Shown: positions 12,366-34,780, numbered from the stretch's first letter. The stretch is 64,000 nucleotides of DNA from an uncultured Candidatus Saccharibacteria bacterium (GCA_965230915.1 OZ246395.1:858431-922430), one strand, 5' to 3'. A program made the numbers and translations. Notes: a model not told the origin generated them from the letters alone.

Positions 12366-12593
12366 ATGAAATTCGGAGACAGGCTGAAAGCAAAAAGGAA
12401 TAAATTAAATATTACCTCTCAAAATTTGGCAGATCTCTGTGGAATATCACGCAGCTATATAACACTTATCGAAAATAACAAGCGACTCCCCGGAAAAAGT
12501 GTAATTCCAAAACTTGCGAAAGCTTTAGACCTAGAAGTAACTGTAATAATAAATTGGTACCTTGAGACAGTAAGAGAAAGTTTGTCTAAATAA
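12366..12593 (+). CDS. XRE-family helix-turn-helix transcriptional regulator
   Basis: ITSQNLADLCGISRSYITLIENNKRLP is a canonical Cro/C1-type HTH. Confidence 0.8.
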   Translation: MKFGDRLKAKRNKLNITSQNLADLCGISRSYITLIENNKRLPGKSVIPKLAKALDLEVTVIINWYLETVRESLSK

Positions 12594-12684
12594 ATAAACT
12601 GTATTCATTGACTGCCATATAGAATTCCTCTATCTTATAACTTATATAGTTACATATTTGTAACAATATTTATAAACAACCTTT

Positions 12685-13056: not shown

Positions 13057-13121
13057 TTACCTGTTATTTTAATGGGGCTTTTACGCTTAATTAAGGTTAC
13101 ATAACAGTAACATTACTAACG

Positions 13122-16100
13122 ATGGATTATTTTTCGGCAGAACAAACTGCAAAATTATTAGGAATCACAACGGATAAATTGAGCATTTTGGAACGTCAAG
13201 GCATCCTACATCCGTTAAAAACTGCAAACGGTAATATTCAATATCCAAAATCAGACATAGTGCAAATCAAATCTCACAATAGACATTCAATTTCTGAAGA
13301 AGCTGAGTTAATGGGCTCTGTTATACAAAAAGATCTTGTTAAATCAACATCTCTAATGAAGAAATCATTATATGTGGCAGGGAGTTTTATAGCTGTTTAT
13401 ATCTTATTAGTAATAATTTTTATTATTTCATTTAGTAGTAACCCGATCCAAACCGCCAAATGGCTTGGAATAATAAGAAATTCAGAAGCCACATCTACTT
13501 TAGCTCTGAATTCTAACGGCGGCAACGTTCTTGGAGCAAGTACTATAGAGAACGAAAAAGATTCCGTAGTACAAACAATTTTACAGCCAGTAGGCAAAGT
13601 CTCTTTAAAATTAGTCAAAAATATAAAACCCGATGCTTACGCGGAAGTTTCAGAAGTTACAATTCTCGACCCTAATGATGTTTTAAAATTAAATACAGAC
13701 GGGAATATGGTGCCTGAAAAACCAATAGATATCGCCGATAGCTCATTACTAAAAGTTAGAGAAAGCGATCTTGTCGAAAATTTAAACTCACAATATGTTC
13801 AAGGAAGACAACCTGGAACAAACCCCGGCGATTTAGCTATTGTTGGAGATAATAGCCAAGAAGTGGCTGCACCTATTATAGTGCAAGACAATACTTTGGC
13901 AGAAAAAATATCCGAACTCACCAATGATAATTTTTCGGGTAACGCAGCGATCTCGAATAGTAATCTGGCAAACTCAAGTATTACAATAAATACTTCAGGA
14001 CCGATTTCAGGTGGAGATACCATTGCCCTAGGAGGGGCCATAGACATTGACTGCCCTACATGTATAACCGATGATTCCGACTTTGTGACAGAAGGCAGCA
14101 CTAATACCTTCATAAATAAAAGTATAAACGCGACCGACAATACCATAACAGGTCTTAATTCGATTAATCTGGAGGCCGGCGATTATTCAAGTAAAATCAC
14201 AAGCGGAACATATTCAATAAATATAACCGGCACGGTTGATACAGCAATAAATTTTTCAGGACAACTTTTAGGAGACGTAACGGGAACCCAAACCGCAACA
14301 AGTGTAGAAAAAATAAAAGGACAATCCCTCGGGAATGTTTTACCGACATCGGGAAATATTCTTATCGGAAACGGTAGCGAATGGAACTCAGAGCTTTTAA
14401 GCGGAGATGCGACCATCGATGCGTCCGGCGTTATAACTTTAAAAAATACTGGAACCGCTGGCATTTTTGGCTCATCTAATTCAATTCCAATCATCACAAC
14501 CGACGCACAAGGTAGAGTTCTATCTGCATCAACTACATTAATCACAGGTTTAGGTCCATCAAGTCTTTCATCGGGTGATTATTCGTCCGTTATCAATTCA
14601 GGAATTTATAATATAGATATTTCGGGAAACGCTTCAACCGCTACTTCAGCCACTTCTGCAAATACAGCTACAACCGCAAATTCCGCGACTAATTTTACAG
14701 GGAACTTATTGGGCGATGTAACAGGTACACAAAGTTCAACAATCGTCGAAAAAATAAATGGCGAAAATTTAGGAATAGTTACACCTACTTCCGGAAATTT
14801 GTTAATTGGTAGTGGAACCGAATGGGTAACAAAATCTTTAAGCGGAGATGCAACAGTAAACTCTTCCGGTCTAGTTTCATTAGTAAACACAGGCACGGCA
14901 GGAACGTATGGCTCATCTAGCGAAATACCAGTTATTATAACCGATTCAAAAGGAAGAGTTACCGGAGTTGCTAATACATCAATAGCAAACTTAAGCGTTT
15001 CGAATTTTATATCTCAAAACATTTCGCAATGGACAAATGATTCATCTTTTATTACCAACTCATCCATTAATAACTTAACAAATAAAACTATCTCGGGAAT
15101 TACAAATACATTATCTGATATATCAAACTCTTCGCTTTCGAATTCTTCAATAACATTTGCGGGCAATGTCGGTTCTGGCAATATTTCACTTGGAAGCACA
15201 ATAAATATTCTTGGCGGAGGAATAAATTCAACATCTTATTCATCTGGAACGTTAACAATTACCGGCACCGAAGCCGATACTTTAAGTTCTGTTACCGGTC
15301 GTGGATCTTCAACAAACAATACACTCACTTTAAACGGAGGAATTAATACAACTACAACAACAAACTTAAATCTAGATACCGGAACCACAGGTTCAATATT
15401 AATAGGCACAGGTTTTAATTCCAAAAATATAGGAGTCGGAAACACATTCGGATCAACCAGCTTAAATCTTTTTTCAGGTACGGGAAATATAAATTTAGTG
15501 GCAGGTCCGACGAGTTCAAGTGAAAAAGTACAAATCGGGAATAGCGCATCGGCTACTCCCGACATACTTGTATTAGATAATGGAACAGCCGACCCATCAG
15601 GCATAAATGGTGCTATGTACTACAATACTGCTACAAATAAATTTAGGTGCTATCAAAATGGTTGGACTAATTGTATCAGTAATGTTGGAGCTGATATTCA
15701 AAACGCAGTTTCATATGACACCTCACAAGACTTAACAAATATTGGATCCGCACAAGTCACAGTCACGTCGGTAACGGTAACTCCAACGACGGCAACCGGA
15801 GATGTTTATGTTAGAGCAAAAGCTGAAATATTAAGCAGTAATGGAACAGATCAAACTCTAGTACTTTCGATAGAAGATAACGCAACTTGTACGGGATCAA
15901 CACTTACATCAAACCCGATAACAATAACTTCTGCTTCGGGAACAGTTATTGGAGATTTTGAATTGTCTGCAGTCGAAGTCGATGCTGGAACATCGCCGCA
16001 GTCTTATTCTTTATGCGCGTCTACAGCAACAGGAGATACCGACATCAGACTTTATCAAATGTTTGCAACTGTAATTGATACCGGATCGGACTTAGCAGAA

Positions 16101-17865: not shown

Positions 17866-17942
17866 TTGAGGGAGAAAAGGTAGTTAATAACGCTTGATAA
17901 AGGATACTGGTTAAAGTGGTTAATCTGTGAAAATTATATGTC

Positions 17943-17982
17943 TCCGCGGGCTGGACGTTATCAGAACTGAGGTTTTAGAATT
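17943..17982. repeat. att-like direct repeat, copy 1: the 14-nt 3' end of tRNA-Asn (TCCGCGGGCTGGAC) plus 26 nt identical to copy 2. Left boundary of the tRNA-Asn island
   Basis: 40/40 identity with 18645-18684. The first 14-15 nt equal the 3' acceptor/T-arm end of the tRNA at 19228-19302. Confidence 0.85.
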
Positions 17983-17984
17983 TA

Positions 17985-18046
17985 TTGAAGTTGTTTCGAC
18001 TTGACCTTCCCAAATCTCATCAGACACTAAGTGTAACAACTTGCAA
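17985..18046 (-). ncRNA. Type III hammerhead ribozyme (HHR-1), immediately 3' of gene 18131..18532
   Basis: Minus-sense 5'-UUGCAAGUUGUU^ACAC-UUA-GUGU-CUGAUGA-GAUUUG-GGAAGGU-CAAGUC-GAAA-CAACUUCAA. Conserved CUGAUGA and GAAA cores. Stem I is 4 bp with a triloop, stem II 6 bp with loop GGAAGGU, stem III 7 bp including A15.1:U16.1. Cleavage triplet GUU. Two paralogs covary. Confidence 0.85.
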
Positions 18047-18130
18047 GAATAAAGTATGACTGAGATTTCGGTATTTGAAACCGATTGAAGTGTAGCGCTA
18101 GGCTAAACTCTATTAATCTCAAGCAATACT

Positions 18131-18532
18131 CTACCCTTGCCTCTTGTGTGCTACTTTAAACTTGACCATACCGGCGCTCGTCATGAGCATCCATGATCCT
18201 GGGATAAACTGCACCCAGCCGTCGATCTCAATCTCATCGCCACCATTCCCTCGGTAAACCGAAGCTATTATGTTCAGGACTTTATCCCTGAACTCATCAG
18301 CAACAGTTTCCACAACCTCGCCAGGATTCGTCTGAATCTCGACATACAAATGTGCCGCATCTGGATCCACACTCAAAATCTCTAATCCAAACGCATTCAC
18401 GATTATATCGTCACTTGGCAAGCCATAATCCGTACCCGCCATAACCTTTACTTCACGGCGAATTTTATCTGTGGAATCAATCAAAAATGTCTTAACTCCA
18501 AGATCCATAGCTAACAGTTTAATCAGTGGCAT
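18131..18532 (-). CDS. Hypothetical 133-aa protein, GC-richer cassette gene P1
   Basis: Own promoter (TTTAAA-17-TATAAT) and SD AAGGAG 9 nt before the ATG; followed by HHR-1. No recognisable domain. Confidence 0.7.
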   Translation of the reverse strand: MPLIKLLAMDLGVKTFLIDSTDKIRREVKVMAGTDYGLPSDDIIVNAFGLEILSVDPDAAHLYVEIQTNPGEVVETVADEFRDKVLNIIASVYRGNGGDEIEIDGWVQFIPGSWMLMTSAGMVKFKVAHKRQG

Positions 18533-18585
18533 GGCTTTCGACTCCTTTTGCCATTTCTAAAACATACCTATTCGGAATTAATAGG

Positions 18586-18623
18586 ATTGTGCATGATTAT
18601 ACTATAAATACAGGTCGATTTAA
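18586..18623 (-). promoter_or_regulatory. Sigma70-type promoter of cassette P1 (TTTAAA-17-TATAAT) with upstream CCCATAGTATTT motif
   Basis: rc of 18586-18591 is TATAAT, rc of 18609-18614 is TTTAAA, spacer 17. Motif CCCCATAGTATTT directly upstream, next to the att repeat. Confidence 0.6.
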
Positions 18624-18644
18624 ATACTATGGGGCATAAATGGG

Positions 18645-18684
18645 TCCGCGGGCTGGACGTTATCAGAACTGAGGTTTTAGAATT
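18645..18684. repeat. att-like direct repeat, copy 2 (identical 40 nt), separating cassettes P1 and P2
   Basis: TCCGCGGGCTGGACGTTATCAGAACTGAGGTTTTAGAATT is identical to 17943-17982, 703 bp away. Confidence 0.85.
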
Positions 18685-18694
18685 AGTTAATTGG

Positions 18695-18760
18695 AAATAA
18701 AAAAACCGCCTCATGATTTTGATTGTCGTAATGACTTTCGCGTCATAAAGCGGGTTAATC
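18695..18760 (-). terminator. Terminator-like structured region 3' of cassette gene P2 (nested hairpins, then UUUUUUUAUUU), where P1 has a hammerhead instead
   Basis: Minus-sense CCGCUUUAUGACGCGAAAGUCAUUACGAC...CAUGAGGCGGUUUUUUUAUUU; the inner AUGAC-GCGAAA-GUCAU hairpin sits inside a longer imperfect stem. Confidence 0.4.
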
Positions 18761-18785
18761 TAAACAGGTTAAGGGTTAGATTCCC

Positions 18786-19139
18786 TTACTTGAGGAGCTT
18801 TAGCTCAGATAGAGGGGGATATGCTGATCCCCAAAAGAAATACTTATCCGAAAATCCAGAACCACTCAATAGTAAGTAGCTAACCGAGGCCATAGGTGTC
18901 GAAGTAAATCGATATTGGTTCCTATCAATTTCCGTCAAGCCAACTCGCCCGTTTCCCCAGACCATAACGCCTGCTAACAGCTGAGGTAAGTATGTTTTCC
19001 GATGTTCTCCTAAATAGGAGTACACTGGGAACATCATTTGGATCAACTCTTCATCCGAGTTGCTAAATACAGGAATCCGCCCCTCTGCTAGAGTCTTTGC
19101 CCAACCACTTACGATAGCATTTAAATCGTCGGTGATCAT
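18786..19139 (-). CDS. Hypothetical 117-aa protein, cassette gene P2, first gene after tRNA-Asn
   Basis: ORF directly downstream of a consensus promoter abutting the tRNA; visibly higher G+C than flanks; no recognisable domain. Confidence 0.65.
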   Translation of the reverse strand: MITDDLNAIVSGWAKTLAEGRIPVFSNSDEELIQMMFPVYSYLGEHRKTYLPQLLAGVMVWGNGRVGLTEIDRNQYRFTSTPMASVSYLLLSGSGFSDKYFFWGSAYPPLSELKLLK

Positions 19140-19186
19140 TATGTCCTCTTTCTTTGTGGATGAACCTTCTAATGAGAATTTGTGAG

Positions 19187-19215
19187 ATTTTAACAGTTTA
19201 CGACAAGCCTGTCAA
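19187..19215 (-). promoter_or_regulatory. Consensus sigma70 promoter (TTGACA-17-TAAAAT) immediately 3' of tRNA-Asn, reading into P2
   Basis: rc of 19210-19215 is TTGACA, rc of 19187-19192 is TAAAAT, spacer 17. Preceded by CCTATAGTG. Confidence 0.65.
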
Positions 19216-19227
19216 CACTATAGGATA

Positions 19228-19302
19228 CGTGGCTCCGCGGGCTGGACTCGAACCAGCAACCTCGAAGTTAACAGCTTCTTGCTCCACCATTGAGCTACCG
19301 CG
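19228..19302 (-). tRNA. tRNA-Asn (anticodon GTT), CCA encoded
   Basis: rc gives TCCGCGG-TA-GCTC-AATGGTG-GAGC-A-AGAAG-CTGTTAA-CTTCG-AGGTT-GCTGG-TTCGAGT-CCAGC-CCGCGGA-G-CCA, a cloverleaf with 7-bp acceptor stem, U33 and anticodon GUU. Confidence 0.9.
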
Positions 19303-19319
19303 GAATATTGGTGCTGCAG

Positions 19320-25266: not shown

Positions 25267-27111
25267 TTATGAAGATAGCTCTGCAAGTTCGTGAGTATAT
25301 ACTTTGACCTGATCCTGGTAAGCATCTAGCTTACTATTGTCGGACATGGCTTCTGCTTGTTTAATGGCTTTTGATAGTTCTTTAAGCTTTCGTTTTAGAA
25401 AGTCCACTTTTAGCCTACGTATAACAGAAGCGATTTCAGCGTCAAAATCCTCACTTTCCTCCAGATCATCTTCGGAATCAATTAAACGATTCTCGCCCAA
25501 TCTCGCATCGGCGAGGTAAATCTTTTCAAATAAGCTGTGTAGTTCGGGCTGATTATCCGATAGTTTATCATAAAAAGCCTTGATATCAACGCTTTTTTTA
25601 CTATCAGCAGCCTTTTTCAGGTCTACAAAGAGTGCCTTTGTATGATCATTAGTAAACAGCTCATCTTCTATAGAATTTGTATAAAATGGCAGGTTGGTCT
25701 TATTCCCTTTTAATAATAGGGAAAGTAAATATACCTCTAGTTGAGGATATTCAGATAGGCCAATTATGTTCTTATTAACGAGGCTATCCCCTTTTTCGTC
25801 ACGTTTTTGCTCAAATTGCTCAAAACTGGTGGCTTTTACCTTTTGTAACTGGGTTTTAACCTCATTTTCGTCCATATCAAAAGCATCGACAAATTTCTTG
25901 ATATATTCGGATTTAACCACCTCATCATCGATTCCTTTTATCATTTGTAAAAGAAATTGCCCCGCGTCTTTCTTGCCGAAAATATCTTCCATATTGTATT
26001 TCTTACTAGCATATATAAAGTAGTAATCCCATAAAGGAACGGCGTCCTTTACTATTTTTTTGAGGGCCTTCGGATCTTTTTTAATAAGCTCATCAGGATC
26101 TTTTACATCGGCTGGCATTATCGCAATTTTTAGATTAAGACCAGCGTTTTTGATAATGTCTATTCCGCGAATTGATGCGTCGGCGCCAGCGACATCATTA
26201 TCAAAAATTAAAATAGCAGCTGGCGCATAGCGTTTTAGTAAATCAATTTGGCCTAAAGTTAATGCTGTTCCTTTTGACGCAACTATATTTTGATAACCAG
26301 CCTGATATGGAGAAATCATATCGAATTCACCTTCGACAATAATTGCTTCCTTTTCTGAGCGGATATGTGCTTTTGCATGATTTAACCCAAACAAAAATTT
26401 TTCTTTATGAAATAGTGGAGTCTCAGGCGTATTTATATATTTCGGTTCCTGATCCGGAAAAAGTGCACGACCTGCAAAACCGACGACGCGGTCCATATGG
26501 TCATAAAGCGGAAACATTAATCTTCCACGAAACATATCGTAAGCATCAGTTCCACTTTTACGTTTTTTACCAAGTCCAGCTCTCTCAATTTCATCGGCTG
26601 TATAACCTGACTTTATTAAAAAATTCGATAAACTATCCCAAGAATTTGGAGCATAACCTAAGCTGAATTCTTTTGCGGTTTCTTTTTTAATTCCGCGCTT
26701 TTTAAGATATTCCCGCGCAGCTTCACCGAATTTATGTTCCATTAAAAGTTTCGAATAAAATTTTTCTGCGATTTTATTCATTTCTAAAATTTTCTCGTTG
26801 AGACCTTTTTCTTTCTTATCAAATTTCGATAGGTCCAATTTCACCCCAGCTTTATCAGCAAGAATTTTTAAAGCTTCGTTAAAATCGACGCCTTCATAAT
26901 CCATAATAAAGTTAAAAATGTCTCCACTTTTAGCACAGCCGAAACATCGGTATCTTTGAATATCTTCTGAAACTATAAATGAGGGAGTTTTTTCGTTATG
27001 AAATGGGCATCTACCTTTGTGATTCTTTCCAGCCTTTTTAAGTGGTACATACTGGCCAATCAGATCTACAATATTCAATTTTTCTTTTATCTGGGTGACT
27101 GCGTCGGACAT
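25267..27111 (-). CDS. dnaG: DNA primase DnaG
   Basis: Zinc-ribbon CPFHNEKTPSF...CFGC, TOPRIM region; upstream of rpoD as in the classic operon. Confidence 0.95.
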   Translation of the reverse strand: MSDAVTQIKEKLNIVDLIGQYVPLKKAGKNHKGRCPFHNEKTPSFIVSEDIQRYRCFGCAKSGDIFNFIMDYEGVDFNEALKILADKAGVKLDLSKFDKKEKGLNEKILEMNKIAEKFYSKLLMEHKFGEAAREYLKKRGIKKETAKEFSLGYAPNSWDSLSNFLIKSGYTADEIERAGLGKKRKSGTDAYDMFRGRLMFPLYDHMDRVVGFAGRALFPDQEPKYINTPETPLFHKEKFLFGLNHAKAHIRSEKEAIIVEGEFDMISPYQAGYQNIVASKGTALTLGQIDLLKRYAPAAILIFDNDVAGADASIRGIDIIKNAGLNLKIAIMPADVKDPDELIKKDPKALKKIVKDAVPLWDYYFIYASKKYNMEDIFGKKDAGQFLLQMIKGIDDEVVKSEYIKKFVDAFDMDENEVKTQLQKVKATSFEQFEQKRDEKGDSLVNKNIIGLSEYPQLEVYLLSLLLKGNKTNLPFYTNSIEDELFTNDHTKALFVDLKKAADSKKSVDIKAFYDKLSDNQPELHSLFEKIYLADARLGENRLIDSEDDLEESEDFDAEIASVIRRLKVDFLKRKLKELSKAIKQAEAMSDNSKLDAYQDQVKVYTHELAELSS

Positions 27112-27180
27112 ATTAAAAATTCAAAATGAAAATATTAGTTTCACTATAGCAGAATATTTTATTTATAAATTTAATACTGT

Positions 27181-27230
27181 GCTTAGCAACCATTAGTTTA
27201 TCCAATTTGGATTCTTTATGGTTGCTAAGC
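27181..27230. repeat. Perfect 13-bp inverted repeat (GCTTAGCAACCAT...ATGGTTGCTAAGC) between islet gene A and dnaG; insulating hairpin/terminator
   Basis: Read directly; 24-nt loop; no strong U-tract. Confidence 0.5.
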
Positions 27231-27253
27231 AACGCAATGTTCGATAACTTTTC

Positions 27254-27871
27254 TTACCGAATAATAAAACCGCCGAAATCAGTGTACCTGAGTGGCTGGC
27301 TTTCCTCACTACCAGCGGGAACCATTACGCGACAGTGGCGTAATCGAGTAAGTACAAGAACTTCTCCCCAGAAGGTTTGTAAATACAGCATTTCCTCGGT
27401 ATGGCGATAAAGCACATGTCTTCCAGTAGTCATGTCTAGCATACTGCAAACTTCAATCTGTCCCGATAGACTGTCTGAATAGGTTATGGTCGCCCCCATT
27501 GTTTCTTCTTTGCCATACCATTTTTCTGGTTTCTCTATCGCTTCGTTTATTGCAAACTCAGAAATATGGTCAGACTGCTCATTCCAGAGTGGCAGGCCGC
27601 GAGACTCATCTGGAATTGTCTCGTATCTGACTAATTGCCCCTTGAGGTCTGTGACTTCACGCACAACTCTGAAGTAAGGCTGAACTCGACCAGTTAGGAT
27701 TTCCTGCATGTTCCTGCCATAAGACTTCACGTACGGCGACATCTCTAAAACAAACTGATCCCGGTCAGAGTTTAATTTCCGGCTTATGGTTACTTCTGTT
27801 CCATCGTTTGTCTGTCCAACCAAGAACCCGTTAGACATCCTAAGTGCTACGGAAAGTAACAAAGGATACAT
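27254..27871 (-). CDS. Hypothetical protein, GC-richer islet gene A (start at internal ATG MYPLLL...)
   Basis: Extended -10 TGGTATAAT (rc of 27924-27932) places the transcript start downstream of the track TTG start at 27922. N-terminal hydrophobic segment; no recognisable domain. Confidence 0.6.
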   Translation of the reverse strand: MYPLLLSVALRMSNGFLVGQTNDGTEVTISRKLNSDRDQFVLEMSPYVKSYGRNMQEILTGRVQPYFRVVREVTDLKGQLVRYETIPDESRGLPLWNEQSDHISEFAINEAIEKPEKWYGKEETMGATITYSDSLSGQIEVCSMLDMTTGRHVLYRHTEEMLYLQTFWGEVLVLTRLRHCRVMVPAGSEESQPLRYTDFGGFIIR

Positions 27872-28022
27872 AAAAACCCGTCTCTTTCTTCTATTGAACA
27901 CTGTGCAGCAATTCTGCGGCAATATTATACCACCCCATAGTATCTACTGCCCTTTTAATAACCTATCTAGTGCTTTTTTATATTTTCACCGGACAATAAA
28001 ACTGTTACCATTAAATTACAAA

Positions 28023-28721
28023 ATGAAAAAAAGAAATTTAATACTAACCATAGTACTTTTCATTCTCTTTCTTATCGGAACCTATTCCAGTCAATTCTTA
28101 TATAAAAATTTTTCTAACCAAGCTGCATTAGATATAGATGGATTAACCGGAGAATATGACCCTCTTCATACAACAGCCATTTTTAATAATGAAATGGTTT
28201 TCGTACCATCGCAACAATTTGCAGACGCGCATGTATTGGGCGATGACGACTCAGAAGATATAGAAGATCCAGATTATAAACGCATTGAAGTCGATTTAAC
28301 TAATCAAAAATTATATGCATTCGAAGGCGATAAAAAAGTTATGGAATTTTTAGTATCAACAGGAAAATGGGGAAAAACTCCAACGGGTGAATTTAGAATT
28401 TGGACAAAACTTCGCTACACAAGAATGTCAGGAGGAAGCAAAGAGCTACGAACCTATTACAATTTACCGAATGTTCCATTTACAATGTTTTTTTCTAATG
28501 CTGAAATTCCTGCATCTCGCGGATTTGGAATTCACGGAACTTATTGGCACGATAACTTCGGACACCCTATGAGTCACGGATGTGTAAATATGAAAACCGA
28601 AGAAGTTGAACAATTATACTATTGGGCAAACCCTGAACTTGGGGAAGAAAAATCTATTCGGGCAACGAAAGATAATCCTGGAACAAAAATTATTATCTAC
28701 GGAAAAGCTCCCAATTATTAA
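28023..28721 (+). CDS. L,D-transpeptidase (YkuD domain) with N-terminal signal/TM
   Basis: GIHGTYWHDNFGHPMSHGCVNM catalytic His/Cys motif. Start placed at MKKRNLILTIVLFILFLIG because the upstream track start overlaps the convergent gene. Confidence 0.8.
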   Translation: MKKRNLILTIVLFILFLIGTYSSQFLYKNFSNQAALDIDGLTGEYDPLHTTAIFNNEMVFVPSQQFADAHVLGDDDSEDIEDPDYKRIEVDLTNQKLYAFEGDKKVMEFLVSTGKWGKTPTGEFRIWTKLRYTRMSGGSKELRTYYNLPNVPFTMFFSNAEIPASRGFGIHGTYWHDNFGHPMSHGCVNMKTEEVEQLYYWANPELGEEKSIRATKDNPGTKIIIYGKAPNY

Positions 28722-28791
28722 AAATTTGAAGGTATAGCAGAAGACAAACTTAACATTGTATGCACAATGAAAGCTCGCCTTCTGCGTCAAC

Positions 28792-29613
28792 CTAGTTACT
28801 AAACAAGTATGGAATCAACAACTGTCGTTGTGGCGCGGGTTCATCCAAAAATCGGATTACTTTGGAGTTTCCAATTTTCAGAGAATAGATGTCGACTGCT
28901 TTATCGATCGTCATAGGAATACTTACAGCAGTCGCACCGCCGTCGGCGTTAAGCGCGAAGCCACTGATCAGATTTCCATTCTGCTCGATGCTCCAGCCGG
29001 AAACTTCTTGCGCAGTGAAATCTATTTCACCTGAGACCTTGAGTTCAAATGAAGTAAAAACTTTCGAATCTACGATCTCGATGAAATCACGATCGCCAAA
29101 ATACTGAGCGGTTGGCAGAATTCTGAATTCGCCGTCCTGCAGTTGAAAGTTAGGCTCTTTGCCTTTCCCAAACGAGAAATGGTTGAGGTCAATAAGGCCA
29201 ATCTGACCGGCTTCGCCTGTTACAGTGTATTGAACCGCAAACAAAATACGCGTTCCTTGGGCCGTAATGGTATAAGGATTATCGAACCTCAAATCAATCT
29301 GTGATGTACGCAGATTTTGATCGATAGACCCACCCGCAAATCCGAGTATAGATGCTGCAGTCATTGTTATATTACTGAACTGCAAAATCTTAGGATCTGC
29401 TCTCAAACCGACCTCAATATTAGTGACTTCGTAATCACTTATATCGGATGCGTAAATGGGAATGGTAACAAGCGTGCCTGGAGCACCCTTGAACGGACTA
29501 ACCGTGACGACAACGTCTGAAAGTTGGGCATTAACAATTGACCAACCTACAAGCATCGCAACTACTGCCAAAAGTAGCGGAATTACAAGCATAATCCAGC
29601 GGCGGATATACAT
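28792..29613 (-). CDS. Secreted hypothetical protein (signal peptide, beta-rich), islet gene B
   Basis: MYIRRWIMLVIPLLLAVVAMLVGWSIVNAQ signal; strong SD GGAGGA 7 nt before the ATG; upstream CCCATAGTTAT motif. Confidence 0.65.
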   Translation of the reverse strand: MYIRRWIMLVIPLLLAVVAMLVGWSIVNAQLSDVVVTVSPFKGAPGTLVTIPIYASDISDYEVTNIEVGLRADPKILQFSNITMTAASILGFAGGSIDQNLRTSQIDLRFDNPYTITAQGTRILFAVQYTVTGEAGQIGLIDLNHFSFGKGKEPNFQLQDGEFRILPTAQYFGDRDFIEIVDSKVFTSFELKVSGEIDFTAQEVSGWSIEQNGNLISGFALNADGGATAVSIPMTIDKAVDIYSLKIGNSKVIRFLDEPAPQRQLLIPYLFSN

Positions 29614-29854
29614 CGGGTTCCTCCATATATAAACAAAACCATCTCGGGGTAACTAGGTTATCAATGTTCTAACGAACAAGATAATTCTACATTTTTATAA
29701 GCGCTTTGGCTATAACTATGGGTTTCGTATTTAATTTTGATAATTGGGAAAAATTGAATTTTCCAGGACGTCACTAATTGTTTCTTTAAAGGCTTTTGGC
29801 CCTTCATTGCAATTGCAATGAGAAACATTTAGTGACGCCTGGTCTTGCACGAAC

Positions 29855-30478
29855 TTAGAGAGCTAACGTGACAAAGTCGTAGTTGGTTTTGCCAGCCTCA
29901 GAATATCCACTTTGGATATCTTTGGTGCCGGCTTTGACCACAAGGCGCTTCACAACATCGAACTCGACGACAGAGTCGCGAGTTTCGGTCTCGAGCGGAA
30001 GCTCGATCGTCACGATCTCACCGACCATGATGCGGCCGGAATAGGCGACTTGCTTCATGAACTTGCGCTGGCTTTCCTTCAGCAAGTAATACTTGCTGCC
30101 GCCATCGTCACGGTACTCTGACCATTCGGAATCCGGAATTAACGCTATTACACCTAGCTGAGTCTTCAAACGAGCGTCTTCCCAGCGGGCAGAACCGCCT
30201 TTCGGGAAATCAGCAAACACATGCCCAACGGGGCGCTGCGGCTTTACGTTATCCGGGTCGGCAACGATAATACCGACGCGCGTAAACGCTAGGTCGTAAG
30301 TCAAATCCCCCGTCGGAATATAGCACGGCAACATTTCGATGCGCCGGCGGCGATCTGCCTCCTCGTACATCTTAATTGTGACCGGCATAAGTTTCGGCTC
30401 GCCAGCTTTCACAGGCACAGTCAATTCGACGCCGACCAACAACTCTTCCTCAGTGTACATACGCATAAGACCTGTCAT
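29855..30478 (-). CDS. Hypothetical protein, GC-rich islet gene C (start at internal ATG MTGLMRMY)
   Basis: Promoter TTGGAA-16-TATAAT (-10 is rc of 30534-30539) lies inside the longer track ORF, so M20 is used with purine-rich RBS AGAAAGAGAGAC. Visibly GC-rich. Confidence 0.6.
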   Translation of the reverse strand: MTGLMRMYTEEELLVGVELTVPVKAGEPKLMPVTIKMYEEADRRRRIEMLPCYIPTGDLTYDLAFTRVGIIVADPDNVKPQRPVGHVFADFPKGGSARWEDARLKTQLGVIALIPDSEWSEYRDDGGSKYYLLKESQRKFMKQVAYSGRIMVGEIVTIELPLETETRDSVVEFDVVKRLVVKAGTKDIQSGYSEAGKTNYDFVTLAL

Positions 30479-30533
30479 TTTTGTCTCTCTTTCTATAGTG
30501 TGCAATATATCCTGCCTTTGCAAGAATGGCTGC

Positions 30534-30576
30534 ATTATACCTCATTTTAGGGGATTTTCCAAATACTATGGGATGG
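30534..30576 (-). promoter_or_regulatory. Promoter of islet gene C: CCATCCCATAGTATT-TTGGAAAATCC-...-TATAAT-GCAGCC, sharing TTGGAAAATCC and GCAGC with the tRNA-Asn promoter
   Basis: Direct comparison with 19320-19348 (minus sense). Confidence 0.55.
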
Positions 30577-30652
30577 AACCAGGGGAATATTAGCCTGTAA
30601 CAGCGCAATTGCTGCACCATCGGCTCCAGGCATATGTTGTAATAAAAATTAT

Positions 30653-31855
30653 CTACAAATCCTCAATAGCTGAAACCTCGATATTTAAACCCCTAGAGGC
30701 GACCATACTTTTTGCTTCATCAATTCTATCTTTTGGTACAAAAATAATTCGAATCCCTTCGATCGGAACACCATCTTTTAAACAAATCTCAGATTTATAG
30801 TCACTCTGTGGAATAATAACTTCAGAGGTAATTCCAGAATATTCTCCGGTAGTTTTATCTTGCTGTCTCCAGCTAACATCGCTGCCTGTCTGGATATCAG
30901 CCCCCACAAAATATAAAACAGGAAAGCTTTCTCTGATAAGCTGTTCGTGTTCTTTTTCTTTGTCATTTTTATCCGGTTTTTGTAAAAAAGCTAAGGTGTC
31001 TTGTAAATCTCTGATTTTTATTTGTATCGACTCGTAAAAAACATTTTCTTCACCCATTTTTTGTGCGCGTTCAGTAAACTCTCTTAAATCCCTTCTAATT
31101 GATTCTTCTGAAACACCCCCGTCACCTCTTTTAGCATATCCTACTGCATCTTTATAGTCATTCAACTTAGCTAAACTTATGTATTTATTATTTAAATTTG
31201 CACTCCCAAAAACGCCTTCCCCGGAAGCGATCGGCATTTTGTCACGAAGAAATTCTTGAGGCCTTAAACCATGATCAAGAACACCTTGTAATGATGCGCT
31301 GGTTGAACCATGCGCGCCAAAAACCCCATTTTCAAAGATGGATAAAGCTAAGTCTGGGTTATCAGCATACAACTCTGCATATAGCTGGCGATCTTCAAGA
31401 AAATCTGTATAGTTCCATTTACCTAATCTTTCTTCAGGGCTTACAGAACGGCCCAATAATTCGCCATCAAAGACAATTTTATTTATAGCTTCCAGTCTTC
31501 TTCTTTTCTCTTCTTCATTAATCGGTAAATATTCAAGTTTAGCCAAACAACTTTGATAAGAATTAAATAAATTTTGATAACCCCAACCAGCAATGAACTG
31601 GTCAACTTCTGAAAGATTGCTCATAAACTCATCTTTTAGGCCTTCTTCGTCTGGCTGTTCTGTTGATTGTGGAACTTCTTGAGGTTGTGGCTTTTGCTCT
31701 TGGGTTATCGAATAGATACCACTATGGGTATTAATTAGGTTTGGATTAATACTAAAATAGCCCTTTTCATCGCCGGCTTGATCGGACAATTTAAATTCTT
31801 CAGGTGTAGGATCATTTATGCCTTCTATAGCATAAATCGAGTCTGAGCTTGGCAT
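30653..31855 (-). CDS. Hypothetical 400-aa protein abutting the left att repeat of the tRNA-Arg island
   Basis: Long ORF, AT-rich like the host; no recognisable motifs; ATG 27 nt downstream (minus sense) of the att fragment, with no SD. Confidence 0.65.
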   Translation of the reverse strand: MPSSDSIYAIEGINDPTPEEFKLSDQAGDEKGYFSINPNLINTHSGIYSITQEQKPQPQEVPQSTEQPDEEGLKDEFMSNLSEVDQFIAGWGYQNLFNSYQSCLAKLEYLPINEEEKRRRLEAINKIVFDGELLGRSVSPEERLGKWNYTDFLEDRQLYAELYADNPDLALSIFENGVFGAHGSTSASLQGVLDHGLRPQEFLRDKMPIASGEGVFGSANLNNKYISLAKLNDYKDAVGYAKRGDGGVSEESIRRDLREFTERAQKMGEENVFYESIQIKIRDLQDTLAFLQKPDKNDKEKEHEQLIRESFPVLYFVGADIQTGSDVSWRQQDKTTGEYSGITSEVIIPQSDYKSEICLKDGVPIEGIRIIFVPKDRIDEAKSMVASRGLNIEVSAIEDL

Positions 31856-31881
31856 TACTTAAATAATATCATTAGAAGTTA

Positions 31882-31894
31882 TGGTGCACCCAAG
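31882..31894. repeat. att-like direct repeat: 13-nt copy of the tRNA-Arg 3' end (TGGTGCACCCAAG); left boundary of the tRNA-Arg island
   Basis: Identical to 34142-34154 (the 3' end of the tRNA at 34142-34218). Confidence 0.7.
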
Positions 31895-31944
31895 TGATGT
31901 TAATTGGAATCGGGTTTTTGAATTTATATTGAAATTTTAGGAAA

Positions 31945-31998
31945 GTAGTTTCGACTTGATCTTCCCAAGTCTCATCAGGGACTATGTCCGACTAGAAC
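31945..31998 (-). ncRNA. Type III hammerhead ribozyme (HHR-2), 3' of gene 32105..32845
   Basis: Minus-sense 5'-GUUCUAGUC^GGAC-AUA-GUCC-CUGAUGA-GACUUG-GGAAGAU-CAAGUC-GAAA-CUACU. Canonical GUC cleavage triplet. Stem I and II covary with HHR-1 and HHR-3. Confidence 0.85.
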
Positions 31999-32104
31999 AC
32001 CGGAAAGAGAGGTTGAAGAAAAAATTGCAACGATTACTCGCGCAGCTTCAACATCTTCCGATGTTCGGTTGATCTACAAAATTCAAAATGAAATTCGCCG
32101 AAAA

Positions 32105-32845
32105 CTAGGCAGACTTCTCAATCCTCTTGAGTGCCAAAGCCTTCTGGCCAAATGGATTGACTTCCAACTGCTCATTATACTTGGGCAAGGCGTTTATTAG
32201 AGGCAAATGCTGATCCTCCATATATCCAAGCCCTATAAAACGATCCGCCAAAGCCTCATCGCGAAGATACATTCCCCGAGAATGAATCGCCTGCCTAAAC
32301 AGGGCAATATCATCATGACTGAGAGCTTCAACATCTGAATTCTCGAGGAGAAATCCCCACTTTTTAGCGAAACCTTGAAGGCCTTTTGCATCCATAGACG
32401 AAATCGCCTGATGTGAGTATTTAACTCTTAGGCCGGCCACGAAATCAGCGAATGGCATGTACCAAAACTCTTCAGTTCGTAAACGAACTTCTTCTGGTTC
32501 CCATTCATAACCTGTGGCAAAAATACCTAGAGCCACAACTCGATCATTCAGTTCTTCAGTCCACCCGCGGTGGCGGATAGTTTCGCGAAGATAAGGCGTG
32601 TCCTCGATCCCCGAAATATCTTCCTCCGTCACATCAAAGAGCCAACCCTGCAGGTACTGCAATAGGCTGACCTCCGTTGTTCCGAACATCATTAATCCGG
32701 TCAGCCCACCATTGGCAGAGTGCGCCTTGTTCGTTGGCCGAGCAGGTATACTGGGAACTGCTTCCTGTGCGACTTGCTCTTCGACCTTTGAAAAAGGAAA
32801 CAAATTAACAACAAACGATACGAAGGTGTTGATAATGTTTTGCAT
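32105..32845 (-). CDS. Hypothetical 246-aa protein, GC-rich cassette gene P3
   Basis: SD AGGAGA 10 nt before the ATG; followed by HHR-2. Confidence 0.7.
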   Translation of the reverse strand: MQNIINTFVSFVVNLFPFSKVEEQVAQEAVPSIPARPTNKAHSANGGLTGLMMFGTTEVSLLQYLQGWLFDVTEEDISGIEDTPYLRETIRHRGWTEELNDRVVALGIFATGYEWEPEEVRLRTEEFWYMPFADFVAGLRVKYSHQAISSMDAKGLQGFAKKWGFLLENSDVEALSHDDIALFRQAIHSRGMYLRDEALADRFIGLGYMEDQHLPLINALPKYNEQLEVNPFGQKALALKRIEKSA

Positions 32846-32881
32846 GGTAGAAGTTTCTCCTGCTTACTGAAAGTTTTTATA

Positions 32882-32925
32882 TTGCTCGAAGTAACTTTCG
32901 ATTACTCAAAAACTAATTCGAGCAA
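32882..32925. repeat. Inverted repeat TTGCTCGAA-(26 nt)-TTCGAGCAA between cassettes P4 and P3
   Basis: Perfect 9-bp arms read directly; lies between HHR-3 and the P3 start. Confidence 0.45.
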
Positions 32926-32953
32926 TATATTTGTAGATCAATTTTTAATGTAC

Positions 32954-33010
32954 AAAACTGTTTTCGATCTGAGCTTCCCAGATCTCATCAGGCGCTATGC
33001 GCGAACAGCG
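32954..33010 (-). ncRNA. Type III hammerhead ribozyme (HHR-3), ~270 nt 3' of gene 33281..33838
   Basis: Minus-sense 5'-CGCUGUUC^GCGC-AUA-GCGC-CUGAUGA-GAUCUG-GGAAGCU-CAGAUC-GAAA-ACAGUUUU. Stem I GCGC/GCGC and stem II GAUCUG/CAGAUC; both covary against the paralogs. Confidence 0.85.
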
Positions 33011-33280
33011 GGCAAAAGTGAAGCGGAAAGCAAAAGATTAGATAATGATCGAAATGATCATCAAATTCTCATGCTTTAAAAACATGCTTCACTGCCCGTC
33101 TGGCAAACTTTGAAACGAATCCAATGTAGAATTCCCTGAGCTAGTATTTGACACTTTAAGCTATTCCTAGGTAAGTATCTTTCGATCTTACACACTATCA
33201 ATAGCGCCGTACCTTGCGGTCTTGGCAGTCTTGAGCTTTTCATCGGGCTCGTGTTGGATTTACAAACTTCTTACTACCAC

Positions 33281-33838
33281 CTACTTGGGTTCGTATATCC
33301 ACTCGATGTGGTCGAATACGAATGGGCGCGGCGCTTCAACAGAGACGATGGCTTTTAGGCCAGCCTCTTCGATTTTCGCCTTTGGATTGGCGAAGGAGAT
33401 GATCTCCTGCAAAGCGCTTTCCCTCGTCCCATCACGGCCTTCCTGGTGATACCAGACAGGAATTTCCTTCGTCTGAGGACCACTCGGCATAGCCGAAGGA
33501 ACAGAAACCACGACACCCATCCGCGGAAGCGGAACTAGATCTCTCGCGAAATCAGCGGAGGTAAAACCTTCCCATGGAAGTCGTACTAAATCCTTCACAC
33601 CTTCCTGCCAAACCACTACTTTCAGTAGTGCCGATGCCAACGGCGCCGGTACATTCTGAAACAACAAAACTGCATCCTTCTCGACAGCCTTTTTTGCCAA
33701 ATCCAAAAGGACTGGCTTTGTCTCCTCGCCCGTTGCGGGGAAGGTGACATTGATGGTTTCGACAACCTCAACTTGGAGTGTGCCGAAGTCTGGGGCGTGC
33801 CGACCAATAACAATAGCGCGAATCGTTGCATTTTGCAT
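33281..33838 (-). CDS. Hypothetical 185-aa protein, GC-rich cassette gene P4
   Basis: RBS GAAAGGG; ~250-nt leader from a consensus promoter next to tRNA-Arg; followed by HHR-3. Confidence 0.7.
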   Translation of the reverse strand: MQNATIRAIVIGRHAPDFGTLQVEVVETINVTFPATGEETKPVLLDLAKKAVEKDAVLLFQNVPAPLASALLKVVVWQEGVKDLVRLPWEGFTSADFARDLVPLPRMGVVVSVPSAMPSGPQTKEIPVWYHQEGRDGTRESALQEIISFANPKAKIEEAGLKAIVSVEAPRPFVFDHIEWIYEPK

Positions 33839-34095
33839 GGTGCTTTCAACCCTTTCAAGATTGAAACTTACATCAGTTTCTAAGCTCCCATTGGAGTTAG
33901 CTTCAGATCACCTGAAGAAACAACCTACGTTTTTCCATCGTAAGCTGATTCCTCAGGCAATCTTCAATTAGTTTGCCAAATTTTTAATGTACTTTTTGAG
34001 ACTTTTTGTGGGGTATAGCCTTTAGGGCCTTGCCGTTAAAAAAGCTCAGAAATCAATGGACTTTTTGATATCCGAACCTTTCAACTTAATGGCTA

Positions 34096-34124
34096 CATTA
34101 TATTACGAAAAGGCTAGCCTGTCA
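34096..34124 (-). promoter_or_regulatory. Perfect consensus sigma70 promoter (TTGACA-17-TATAAT) immediately 3' of tRNA-Arg, reading into the island
   Basis: rc of 34119-34124 is TTGACA, rc of 34096-34101 is TATAAT; preceded by CCTATAGTA. Confidence 0.7.
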
Positions 34125-34141
34125 ATACTATAGGCTAGTGT

Positions 34142-34218
34142 GGTGCACCCAAGAGGATTCGAACCTCTGGCCTCAACTTCCGCAAAGTTGCGCTCTATCC
34201 AGCTGAGCTATGGGTGCT
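34142..34218 (-). tRNA. tRNA-Arg (anticodon GCG), CCA encoded
   Basis: rc gives GCACCCA-TA-GCTC-AGCTGGATA-GAGC-G-CAACT-TTGCGGA-AGTTG-AGGCC-AGAGG-TTCGAAT-CCTCT-TGGGTGC-A-CCA. Arg-type D and T arms; anticodon loop UUGCGGA. Confidence 0.85.
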
Positions 34219-34288
34219 TAATGGTAGCGGGAATACAAAACATCAATATTATATACAAAAACCGCGCTATTTGCTTAAATTAATCTAT

Positions 34289-34780
34289 ATGAGAAAAGTA
34301 GTTCTAGCGGTAATCGGTATAATCCTCTTTGCAATTTTGCTATTTGTCGGCCAGGTAGTCTGGGGATTTTACACAGCTGTTCAAGATTACAATTCACCTG
34401 TAAACCCCCAAACTACTACTGAAACTGATCCTGACAAATTATTAGAAGAAGCAAGCCCTCAACAAAGATCAAAATATGCGACTATTAAATCTCAAATTTC
34501 TTCGATTTCTCGCATGATGGCGATTTATTATGTCGAGCATCAAACTTATCCGCCATGCGACGCTACTGCAATCGACATAGCGGGATTAAGTGCAAAAACA
34601 AATGCTAGTGGGCAATGTATTTTGACAGATCAATTGGGCACCGAATATATCTATTCAAATAAAGGTGAGTGCGCAAAATTATCCACAAAATCTAACCTAA
34701 GCGACAATATGTATATAAATGAAAATGTGGCTAAACCAATAGGCAATAAAGATTTTGCGAATATGGATCTTTGTGAATAG
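34289..34780 (+). CDS. Secreted/membrane-anchored hypothetical protein with several Cys (start at MRKVVLAV... since the track start overlaps the tRNA)
   Basis: N-terminal hydrophobic helix VLAVIGIILFAILLFVGQVVWGF; Cys in C-terminal half. Confidence 0.55.
   Translation: MRKVVLAVIGIILFAILLFVGQVVWGFYTAVQDYNSPVNPQTTTETDPDKLLEEASPQQRSKYATIKSQISSISRMMAIYYVEHQTYPPCDATAIDIAGLSAKTNASGQCILTDQLGTEYIYSNKGECAKLSTKSNLSDNMYINENVAKPIGNKDFANMDLCE

Follow-up and report, generated by a model that had tools for sequence, protein, structure and literature searches.

In a 64-kb window of an A+T-rich Patescibacteria (CPR) genome, meaning the whole stretch of DNA analysed here, we found three small, G+C-rich genes (A, B and C) which are probably moron-like single-gene expression cassettes, drawn from a clade-wide Patescibacteria pool and inserted between core genes. 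The three ORFs proposed in the first-pass annotation were borne out, all on the minus strand, and lie among the following features.

27254-27871, minus strand: gene A ORF, 205 aa
28023-28721, plus strand: L,D-transpeptidase (LDT), YkuD (Pfam PF03734, 83.8 bits)
28792-29613, minus strand: gene B ORF, 273 aa
29855-30478, minus strand: gene C ORF, 207 aa
30653..31855, minus strand: 400-aa gene of unknown function, native in composition and without the cassette 5' module
31882..31894, minus strand: attR of the tRNA-Arg island, CTTGGGTGCACCA, the 3' end of tRNA-Arg

This attR is the border between the younger tRNA-Arg island and the block made up of the 400-aa gene, C and B.

The higher G+C content of A, B and C relative to their neighbours, which had been judged by eye, was upheld by quantitative analysis. 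GC3 was 0.451 in A, 0.438 in B and 0.625 in C, compared with 0.277±0.032 in a reference set of 36 core genes (maximum 0.344), which corresponds to z values of +5.5, +5.0 and +10.9, and a CAI-like index gave z values of -4.3, -3.8 and -6.5. The tetranucleotide measure, r(core) minus r(cassette pool), was -0.12 for A, 0.01 for B and -0.10 for C vs 0.30±0.07 (minimum 0.18) in core chunks, so that all three genes deviated from the core in codon usage and in tetranucleotides; the G+C-normalised dinucleotide signature deviated in A only, not in B or C. A, B and C are thus compositionally foreign, and the genes of the Arg and Asn cassettes share their range (GC3 z +5.6 to +8.2). The composition of LDT (GC3 0.249) and of the 400-aa gene (GC3 0.272, z -0.2; CAI z +0.4) is native. 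The window holds about 12 small orphan genes of foreign composition, clustered at a few hotspots and equipped with one recognisable promoter/leader module. The region from 1 to 8.5 kb (G+C 0.41-0.47, few listed ORFs) was also considered as a set of cassettes and was rejected, as it consists of a single giant ORF that continues beyond the window edge.

The presence or absence of the genes in relatives was then compared. The closest relative found, L002 (DnaG 82% identical), has the order MetRS, tRNA-Arg, small membrane ORF, LDT, 105-bp spacer and dnaG, and rpoD is also present. At this syntenic locus of the one close relative compared, A, B, C, the 400-aa gene and the Arg island are all missing, and they are therefore accessory. 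LDT is found at the equivalent position in L002 and L064 (72% identical) and is a native syntenic core gene outside the cassette set. Thus, of the approximately 7 kb of accessory DNA proposed earlier, the 400-aa gene is indeed accessory, but its composition is native, and the LDT within the stretch belongs to the syntenic core. Between tRNA-Arg and LDT lies a variable hotspot, which in the window contains genes for 185 and 246 aa, an att repeat, the 400-aa gene, C and B; in L002 nothing is inserted, and in L064/L065 a 99-aa gene is followed by C' and B'. C homologs lie in the MetRS/tRNA-Arg to LDT interval of two other genomes, and on a JGI contig the C homolog P0004 follows MetRS directly, with a 209-nt gap.

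The 5' ends of the three genes contain the following elements.

27872..27943, minus strand: leader and promoter of gene A, the leader containing GCAGAATTGCTGCACAGTGTTCAATAGAAGAAAGAG
27924-27932, minus strand: extended -10 of gene A, TGGTATAAT
27934-27943, within the promoter spacer: inverted box of gene A, ACTATGGGG (plus strand CCCATAGTAT)
29614..29747, minus strand: 5' module of B, in the order CCAATTATC, 16-nt core, CCCATAGT, promoter, leader, Shine-Dalgarno
29747-29739, minus strand: B box CCAATTATC
29722-29715, minus strand: B box CCCATAGT
29712-29684, minus strand: B promoter TAGCCA-17-TAGAAT
29619-29624, minus strand: B Shine-Dalgarno GGAGGA
30479..30572, minus strand: 5' module of C, with box, promoter and then leader GCAGCCATTCTTGCAAAGGCAGGATATATTGCACACTATAGAAAGAGAGAC
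30572-30563, minus strand: C box CCCATAGTAT
30562-30534, minus strand: C promoter TTGGAA-17-TATAAT, matching the consensus at 10/12 positions

The consensus-like promoters attributed to the three genes were recovered in each case (TGGTATAAT at A, TTGGAA/TATAAT at C, TAGCCA-17-TAGAAT at B), but the spacer of C is 17 nt rather than 16. Of the motif said to accompany every gene, the copy at C is exact and that at A is exact but inverted, whereas CCCATAGTTA at B misses the last base. In the whole window CCCATAGTWT has three exact matches vs 0.22 expected, namely at A (plus strand, inverted relative to the gene), at C and in cassette 2 of the tRNA-Asn island; the core CC[CT]ATAGT has 11 matches vs about 4 expected, and nine of the 11 are intergenic beside G+C-rich genes. 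The 5' ends of B and C are of the cassette type, with CCYATAGT immediately before the -35, a 17-nt spacer and the -10, and the upstream junction of B is a two-box CCAATTAWY-N-CCYATAGT, which also occurs at the Asn1/Asn2 junction and in L065. The CCAATTAWY box by itself is not enriched in the window (8 matches vs 5.5 expected), nor is the 'GCACA box', and for both only position is informative; promoter-like sites overall are no more frequent in the window than in shuffles.

The 5' module of C was similar to that of tRNA-Arg cassette 1 (z 5.5) and Asn cassette 2 (z 4.7), and its leader to those of L042 (z 5.3) and L041_205 (z 4.8). The leader of A is homologous to L041 leaders (z 6.8 for L041_205 and 5.8; 0/300 shuffles), while that of B gave no significant similarity beyond the motif and the junction box. 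For the leader shared by A, RNAalifold predicted no covarying hairpin, and A is without the 5' strand. The ACTATGG-N5-TATAAW layout of the A promoter is also found after the tRNA-Glu of L048, and an inverted box within the promoter spacer is also present in a hammerhead cassette of L049, so the A-type arrangement occurs in two ribozyme-terminated cassettes elsewhere. Judged from these sequences, A would be tied to the cassette system by an inverted 8-10-nt motif and by the likeness of its leader to those of one other contig. The inverted box, nACTATAGG, presumably resembles T7/SP6-type promoter cores.

The CCYATAGT module recurs before G+C-elevated ORFs in six other CPR contigs, which are L042, L041, L063, L065, L059 (with a 3' hammerhead) and L003 of WWE3, where it drives a gene of 55% G+C. 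In other CPR genomes it drives both C homologs and unrelated ORFs, and on unrelated ORFs it is found in at least seven genomes; because of this attachment to unrelated ORFs, the 5' module is a portable expression platform and not part of one gene. The CCCATAGT box and the cassette-type hammerhead variant also occur in contigs of 55-63% G+C, which makes a source pool of higher G+C plausible. The earlier idea that A, B and C belong to the same cassette system as the islands is therefore supported by the cassette-type 5' ends, the match of C to Arg cassette 1, the two-box junction of B, the module in other CPR genomes, and the C homologs at the same interval in two genomes.

Three long hairpins lie at the 3' sides of the genes.

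27180..27231, minus strand: long hairpin 3' of gene A, with a 14-bp perfect stem and an inner 5-bp stem, no T-run
28737..28785, minus strand: long hairpin between the convergent stops of B and LDT (-28.1 kcal/mol, z -6.3)
29764..29842, minus strand: three-way-junction hairpin between C and B (-42.6 kcal/mol, z -7.4)

The inverted repeat that had been noticed beside dnaG is perfect as described, but it is 14 bp and not 13 bp long, pairing 27180-27193 with 27218-27231. Its minimum free energy is -31.9 kcal/mol (z -4.6; 0/200 shuffles fold as well), and it is likely a terminator or insulator between A and dnaG. A homologous outer stem of the C-B hairpin exists in L064, where two pairs have changed in a compensatory manner (CACTAA/TTAGTG vs CGTTAA/TTAACG). 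This hairpin was also considered as a degenerate hammerhead and rejected, as it has no CUGAUGA/GAAA core and its model score is at most 5.4 bits.

The covariance model used here (R1) represents the local hammerhead and was run with filters off. The local type III hammerhead was validated by 95.6% paired cells and nine pairs with compensatory change, and the three real copies in the window scored 71-75 bits, while nothing above 6 bits was found in 26900-31900. In 27100-31860, Smith-Waterman scores compared with those of shuffles revealed neither an att repeat of tRNA-Arg or tRNA-Asn nor a hammerhead remnant, and the region of A-C had no tRNA-like or hammerhead match in Rfam at E up to 10, which agrees with the initial description of these genes as free of tRNA repeats and ribozymes. 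Hammerheads are optional in the family: they are present in only three of about 12 cassettes in the window, and both Asn cassette 1 and the cluster of four cassette genes at 60.7-62.3 kb, which has no att repeat either, are without one. A hammerhead need therefore never have been present at A-C. An older, decayed part of the system that had lost its att repeats and ribozymes, as was first suggested, is not borne out by the data: C is the least ameliorated gene of all, the motif of A is inverted and in another intergenic region, and the 400-aa gene is not compositionally foreign. A simple array model in which older means more ameliorated is contradicted, since the distal cassette C has the highest GC3.

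Gene A is an orphan, with itself as the sole match among 5.8e9 proteins and no match in Pfam, PHROG, PADLOC, phage records or IMG/VR, and its structure predicted from the single sequence was unusable (pLDDT 31). Against the C-family HMM it gave a weak 3.0 bits (empirical p about 0.01; hhalign probability 2.9%); equal length, collinear weak matches and a C-terminal DFGGF are suggestive of a remote paralog of C, an assignment that we did not adopt. Gene B was also an orphan in a word-indexed search of 5.8e9 proteins, and it has no homologs in phage records or IMG/VR. The B protein has an N-terminal signal peptide or membrane anchor followed by a putative cohesin-like beta-sandwich domain (Pfam Cohesin PF00963, residues 36-137, E 6e-5, 23.7 bits vs a cutoff of 24.1). 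Its identity to the 272-aa protein at the equivalent position in L064 is 30.5% over 262 aa (E 2e-29), and to a cohesin protein of L041, which itself carries PF00963, it is 23%. B is likely a secreted or anchored cohesin-like surface protein.

Gene C belongs to a rare protein family of nine members (including P0001 and P0004-P0010), which it matches over its full length in HMMER, with conserved RPVGH, RW, DGGS and GxT..F motifs. The eight-sequence family set had no usable conserved stretch for a pattern search, and the conserved-motif patterns were unmatched in JGI metagenome contigs and IMG/VR. The structure model of the family is confident and all-beta, with no fold match. C homologs occur only in CPR-like, low-G+C contexts, and these contexts differ among L041, L042, L043 and L063. 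C is followed by B in two genomes (the window and L064), and in L041 a C paralog adjoins the cohesin protein. C is likely a cytoplasmic all-beta protein that travels with B, and we infer that the two form an accessory module, probably for cell-surface or host/phage interaction.

In the mechanism we propose, each cassette would combine a strong sigma-70-type promoter of its own with a conserved leader, a small ORF that evolves fast and a long hairpin resembling a terminator. Transcription of each gene would probably start at its own promoter and not depend on the neighbours, from which the hairpin would insulate it. Cassettes may enter by site-specific recombination at tRNA 3' ends, through a recombinase presumably encoded outside the window, and may later be swapped or spread when their conserved 5' modules and junction boxes recombine homologously, a second step that would explain cassettes without an att repeat, such as A, B, C and those of the 60.7-62.3 kb cluster. 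The high G+C would be the composition of the mobile pool, which may overlap with higher-G+C bacteria. For A, B and C neither an att repeat nor a recombinase nor an excised form was found, so their mobility is something that we only infer.

The alternative that survives best, which we still regard as unlikely, is that C, B and perhaps A form a vertically inherited, fast-evolving surface-protein locus that was lost by L002, in which case the shared promoter and leader would be a regulon and the G+C would have a local cause (expression selection or biased repair). The order C, hairpin, B, LDT is kept in L064 and could result from vertical inheritance followed by loss in L002, the C-B hairpin has conserved compensatory changes, the C homolog of L043 has a native GC3 of 0.25, and the lack of an att repeat or recombinase is as expected. 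However, C and B are just 28-30% identical between genomes whose LDTs are 72% identical, C has a GC3 of 0.625 in the window vs 0.337 in L064, and all three genes are missing from the closest relative in spite of its 82% identical DnaG. The 5' module also sits on unrelated ORFs flanked by tRNA-derived direct repeats and at 60.7-62.3 kb, and C homologs have differing contexts in four contigs.

It is more doubtful still that A, B and C were acquired independently from a higher-G+C donor, such as the host of this episymbiont, with motif and promoters being coincidental. The strongly foreign composition and the presence of the neighbouring cassettes' hammerhead variant in 55-63% G+C contigs are in favour of such a donor, but a search of 5.8e9 proteins found no homolog of A or B, C is known from low-G+C, CPR-like contexts only, the similarities of 5' module and leader are significant, and the module recurs in six other CPR contigs. 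Unrelated acquisitions, which the first-pass annotation had weighed equally, are thus unlikely given the shared modules, while a higher-G+C source pool is still plausible. Least probable is that the block goes back to a prophage, plasmid or integron that has since degraded, with A, B and C as leftover cargo: units built like morons (promoter, gene, terminator, deviant G+C) are a typical feature of prophages, and bacterial hammerheads often flank single genes near integrases or prophages, according to the accessible part of PMC3088659, but there were no PHROG matches, no tblastn matches in 50,697 phage records and none in IMG/VR, no integrase in ten Pfam-screened ORFs (including five neighbours that are not cassettes), LDT, a core gene, stands among the three, by inspection the hairpins lack the attC box order, and every cassette is driven by a promoter of its own. 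Nor was any phage, plasmid-like or defence signal found.

The preferred reading, single-gene cassettes from a shared pool, can be compared with known systems. Phage morons (Hendrix/Juhala) are reportedly independent promoter-gene-terminator units of deviant base composition between conserved genes. A, B and C are likewise single ORFs with a near-consensus promoter and a 3' hairpin between conserved neighbours, of clearly different G+C, missing from a close relative and unassigned in function. But they are chromosomal in a CPR bacterium in which no prophage was detected, they carry a portable 5' module (CCYATAGT box, promoter, leader), and their sister cassettes lie between tRNA-derived repeats and have a hammerhead ribozyme at the end. 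The tycheposon-derived islands of Prochlorococcus are tRNA-linked genomic islands built by repeated site-specific integration. The window is similar in that tandem partial tRNA repeats delimit small cargo beside a tRNA gene and strain-specific genes form hotspots, but its units measure only 0.6-1 kb and contain one gene, the array encodes no recombinase, and repeats are entirely missing from A, B and C.

Integron cassette arrays, as far as described in the accessible part of PMC4889954, also consist of mostly orphan single-gene units of foreign composition gathered at a defined site; in both, content varies among relatives and a structured hairpin follows each ORF. In contrast, the window cassettes have their own promoters, and their conserved element is the 5' end. 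Their hairpins are without the R''...R' order of attC, the GTT.../...AAC boxes being wrongly ordered by inspection, and the visible integration is into tRNA 3' ends, with no IntI seen in the window. Bacterial hammerhead ribozymes have been described next to single genes in the vicinity of integrases and prophages (Perreault et al. 2011, PMC3088659, accessible part). The tRNA-Arg and tRNA-Asn sister cassettes resemble such hammerhead contexts and those of RAGATH ('genes associated with twister and hammerhead'), being a single variable gene followed by a type III hammerhead, and L048 has the order tRNA-Glu, RAGATH-10 leader (Rfam RF03147 match), small ORF and a hammerhead of the window's variant; A, B and C differ in being ribozyme-free. 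Three features of the window do not appear in the accessible part of PMC3088659, namely its CPR setting, the CCYATAGT-promoter module and the tandem att repeats of tRNA origin. Our literature search found no description of such cassettes in CPR bacteria.

Tentatively, A-C, the ribozyme units at tRNA-Arg and tRNA-Asn and the 60.7-62.3 kb cluster might together represent an undescribed, integron-like gene-capture system of Patescibacteria, with cassettes of 0.6-1 kb, a portable 5' module, an optional 3' type III hammerhead, a trans-acting recombinase at tRNA 3' ends, end-based shuffling, and a pool that spans G+C backgrounds, possibly those of episymbiont and host. The gain and turnover of accessory genes in the tiny, streamlined genomes of CPR/Patescibacteria are poorly understood, and CCYATAGT with a consensus promoter provides a sequence signature for finding such cassettes genome-wide and in metagenomes. 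The cassettes also tie the hammerhead ribozymes of bacteria, which still have no known function, to a definite genetic unit. They further point to the C family and the cohesin-like surface protein as a conserved pair that is a candidate module for interaction with hosts or phages. Should the cassettes turn out to be mobile, they would represent a new gene-capture mechanism in a major uncultured radiation.

The window has an overall G+C content of 37.8% and holds rpoD, dnaG, a YkuD L,D-transpeptidase gene (LDT), the MetRS gene, tRNA-Asn and tRNA-Arg. Its DnaG shares 82% identity with the DnaG from an uncultured Patescibacteria MAG (L002, the closest relative found) and 54% with that of a WWE3 genome (L003), which makes the organism a member of the CPR bacteria. 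The genes under study and those next to them are as follows.

27254-27871, minus strand: gene A
28023-28721, plus strand: LDT
28792-29613, minus strand: gene B
29855-30478, minus strand: gene C
30653-31855, minus strand: 400-aa gene

An ORF check returned A, B and C as the first-pass annotation had them, and its observation that they are richer in G+C than their neighbours was confirmed. The GC3 values of A, B and C were 0.451, 0.438 and 0.625, which meant z scores of +5.5, +5.0 and +10.9 over 36 core genes with a GC3 of 0.277±0.032. A core-trained codon index also deviated (z -4.3, -3.8 and -6.5), and the tetranucleotide profiles were cassette-like and not core-like, being closer to the pooled cassette genes than to the core (r(core) minus r(cassettes) of -0.12 for A, 0.01 for B and -0.10 for C; 0.30±0.07 for core chunks). 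GC3 was native in LDT (0.249), the 400-aa gene (0.272) and a pilin-like gene (0.296). Besides the window, A and B occur on a 945,287-bp contig at NCBI and in Logan contigs from SRR14271365 and SRR14271372.

The order in L002 is MetRS, tRNA-Arg, about 280 bp with a small membrane ORF, LDT, 105 bp, dnaG and rpoD. Relative to this, the window has in addition A (in the gap between LDT and dnaG), B, C, the 400-aa gene, a two-cassette tRNA-Arg island and the pilin-like gene. A, B and C are missing from the L002 locus, so by gene order they are classed as accessory, as had been supposed, and LDT is a core gene. The pilin-like gene (34214-34780, plus strand; T2SSG, E 3e-4), absent in L002 and native in composition, is situated between the MetRS gene and tRNA-Arg; with its GTG start as listed, it shares 4 nt with the tRNA.

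On a JGI contig, a C-family protein (P0004, 45% identical to C) is encoded 209 nt after the MetRS gene, where a tRNA is presumably present; this is the place taken in the window by tRNA-Arg and the first cassette. In the related contigs L064/L065 a 99-aa cassette is followed by C', a long hairpin, B', a 71-aa ORF and LDT, with identities to the window of 28% for C', 30.5% for B' (272 aa, E 2e-29) and 72% for LDT. The hairpin between C' and B' is homologous to 29764-29842, with two compensatory pair changes, and in contig L041 one of the two C paralogs is encoded immediately upstream of a cohesin protein. C and B travel as a pair. The GC3 of C homologs extends from a native 0.25 (L043) through 0.33-0.50 to the 0.625 of C in the window. 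Judged by gene content, the interval from tRNA-Arg to LDT is a cassette hotspot, which was filled differently in every genome examined.

Both tRNA genes, read on the minus strand, are followed by tandem mini-cassettes. The order is the tRNA 3' end, 5-8 nt, CC[CT]ATAGT abutting the -35 box, a leader, a G+C-rich ORF of 117-246 aa, in some cassettes a type III hammerhead, a short conserved stretch with CCAATTAAC, and then a direct repeat of the tRNA 3' end, which is 17 nt for Asn and 13 nt for Arg (31882-31894).

17934-19304, minus strand: tRNA-Asn island, two mini-cassettes (117 aa and 133 aa; GC3 0.46 and 0.48)
19225-19247, 18636-18684 and 17934-17982: three tRNA-Asn 3'-end copies bounding the mini-cassettes
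17989-18041: hammerhead of the tRNA-Asn island
31882-34217, minus strand: tRNA-Arg island, cassettes of 185 aa and 246 aa with a type III hammerhead after each
32957-33009 and 31944-31996: tRNA-Arg hammerheads (74.5 and 71.1 bits with a custom model)

The tRNA-Asn site is empty in the relative L042. The tRNA-Arg island terminates in the 13-nt att repeat, and none was seen between its two cassettes when the sequence was read by eye. Rfam gave one tRNA-Arg hammerhead copy only 28.3 bits, which is below the gathering score; an alignment of 15 copies from the window and metagenomes had 95.6% of cells paired and 9 pairs with compensatory change, and the island hammerhead is genuine. The promoter of Arg cassette 1, TTGACA-17-TATAAT, is a 12/12 match. 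Its 5' leader (33880-34096, minus strand) is long, about 260 nt, with blocks conserved in other contigs (L058, L049), namely ...AGTTRGAAGGTT...GATATTTGAGCTTTTTAAC..., and GTTTCTTCAGNTNATCTGAAGCTAACTCCAATGGGAGCTTAGAAA; it had no match in Rfam and is a candidate structured or regulatory RNA.

The promoters of A, B and C and the GGAGGA site were present. The inverted repeat near A was perfect too, but is 14 bp long and not 13, and the motif noted at all three genes was present, but A's copy lies on the strand opposite gene A and B's copy reads CCCATAGTTA. C starts with CCCATAGTATTTGGAA-17-TATAAT and B with CCCATAGTTATAGCCA-17-TAGAAT. The C module aligned with Arg cassette 1 at z 5.5 and with Asn cassette 2 at z 4.7 (0/200 shuffles). 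The junction upstream of B is CCAATTATC-16 nt-CCCATAGT, and this two-box layout recurs in L065 and at the Asn1|Asn2 junction, whose boxes enclose a tRNA-derived core. The A leader aligned with two L041 leaders (z 6.8 and 5.8), and the C leader with L042 and L041 leaders (z 5.3 and 4.8). The inverted box of A reads ACTATGGGG-TGG-TATAAT; the same arrangement occurs after tRNA-Glu in L048 (ACTATGG-N5-TATAAA) and in L049, both times in a cassette with a hammerhead at its end. Neither an att repeat nor a ribozyme, degenerate ones included, was detectable in 26.9-31.9 kb.

The CCYATAGT box with a -35/-10 promoter was also found upstream of C homologs in L041, L042 and L063 and of an unrelated 99-aa ORF in L065, and in L059 it is followed by a 91-aa ORF and then a hammerhead. 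Across 97 kb of related loci CCYATAGT occurred eight times, five of them in the promoter configuration. In L003 (WWE3, Rifle; 12587-13832), CCTATAGTTTGACT-17-TATAAT lies about 400 nt before the gene for a secreted protein of 276 aa, which has 55-56% G+C in surroundings of roughly 34-46%, so the phenomenon reaches across the clade. The same hammerhead variant occurs in high-G+C bacteria (metagenome contigs L048, L052, L055, L061, L062; G+C 0.55-0.63), and a CCCATAGT box about 110 nt upstream accompanies it at 55-63% G+C. The conserved block of about 110 nt before the hammerhead in L055, L061 and L062 opens with CCCATAGTC and a small covarying hairpin; L048, with the order tRNA-Glu, RAGATH-10 (RF03147, 43.9 bits), 142-aa ORF and hammerhead, has the related TCATAGTC. 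Because variant and box occur together at this G+C, it is credible that the cassettes owe their composition to a gene pool of higher G+C.

Another cassette-like locus lies between recF and a uracil-DNA glycosylase.

60728-62329, plus strand: four small G+C-rich orphan genes (107, 101, 72 and 114 aa; GC3 0.38-0.55)

The promoters of these four genes are of the kind found in the islands, two of them with CCYATAGT (61164, 61523), and hairpin terminators are present; the cluster has no tRNA and no ribozyme. Two CC[CT]ATAGT boxes, 57 nt apart (55691-55755, minus strand), precede a gene for 161 aa (55117-55602) whose GC3 is mildly raised (0.358, z +2.5) and which may be an ameliorated cassette. At the left end, 1-8511 (minus strand) is one open frame of at least 2837 codons that runs off the window, which explains the apparent ORF shortage there; it has 41-47% G+C and internal repeats about 1.1 kb apart (5771-5965, 6896-7111), and probably encodes a giant surface protein. 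The 5' ends of two ORFs of about 125-130 aa (8848-9240, minus strand; 12685-13056, plus strand) are inverted, with 78-88% complementarity, and the two ORFs look like inverted paralogous genes on either side of an 868-aa gene.

9191-9240 with 12685-12734: complementary stretch of the ORF pair
8984-9015 with 12910-12941: complementary stretch of the ORF pair

A and B had no relative in 5.8e9 proteins. C had eight among 1.84e9 representatives, with 26-45% identity and 19 invariant residues, and its model is all-beta and confident (pLDDT 87.5), with no fold match in PDB or among viral folds. B carries a borderline cohesin domain together with a signal peptide or membrane anchor. None of the three matched PHROGs, PADLOC, phage records or IMG/VR.

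The first-pass annotation had proposed that A, B and C may be an older, decayed part of the same cassette system. Membership is borne out for B and C by the shared 5' module, the junction and the other genomes, and more weakly for A by its leader and inverted box. The reading as older and decayed is unproven: attR at 31882-31894 shows that the block of 400-aa gene, C and B was in place before the two ribozyme cassettes arrived, which supports earlier integration, but decay is not supported, since no gene in the window is less ameliorated than C and hammerheads are optional in the cassette family (3 of about 12 in the window).

The A/B/C units resemble phage morons in promoter, gene, terminator and deviant G+C, but come without a prophage. 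As in integron arrays, orphan cassettes are gathered at a hotspot, but the cassettes here have their own promoters, a conserved 5' and not 3' element, and tRNA att sites. A report on bacterial hammerheads describes that they flank single, variable genes near integrases (PMC3088659), and this pattern is matched by the sister cassettes at the tRNA islands. In the literature searched we found no account of such a cassette arrangement in CPR bacteria. For C and B, sequence comparison favours the view that homologous cassettes were exchanged or replaced and not simply inherited vertically, because the two are about 30% identical where the LDTs are 72% identical, and GC3 is greatly different. The homology for such an exchange would come from the conserved 5' modules and the junction boxes. 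Function and mobility of A, B and C are inferred.
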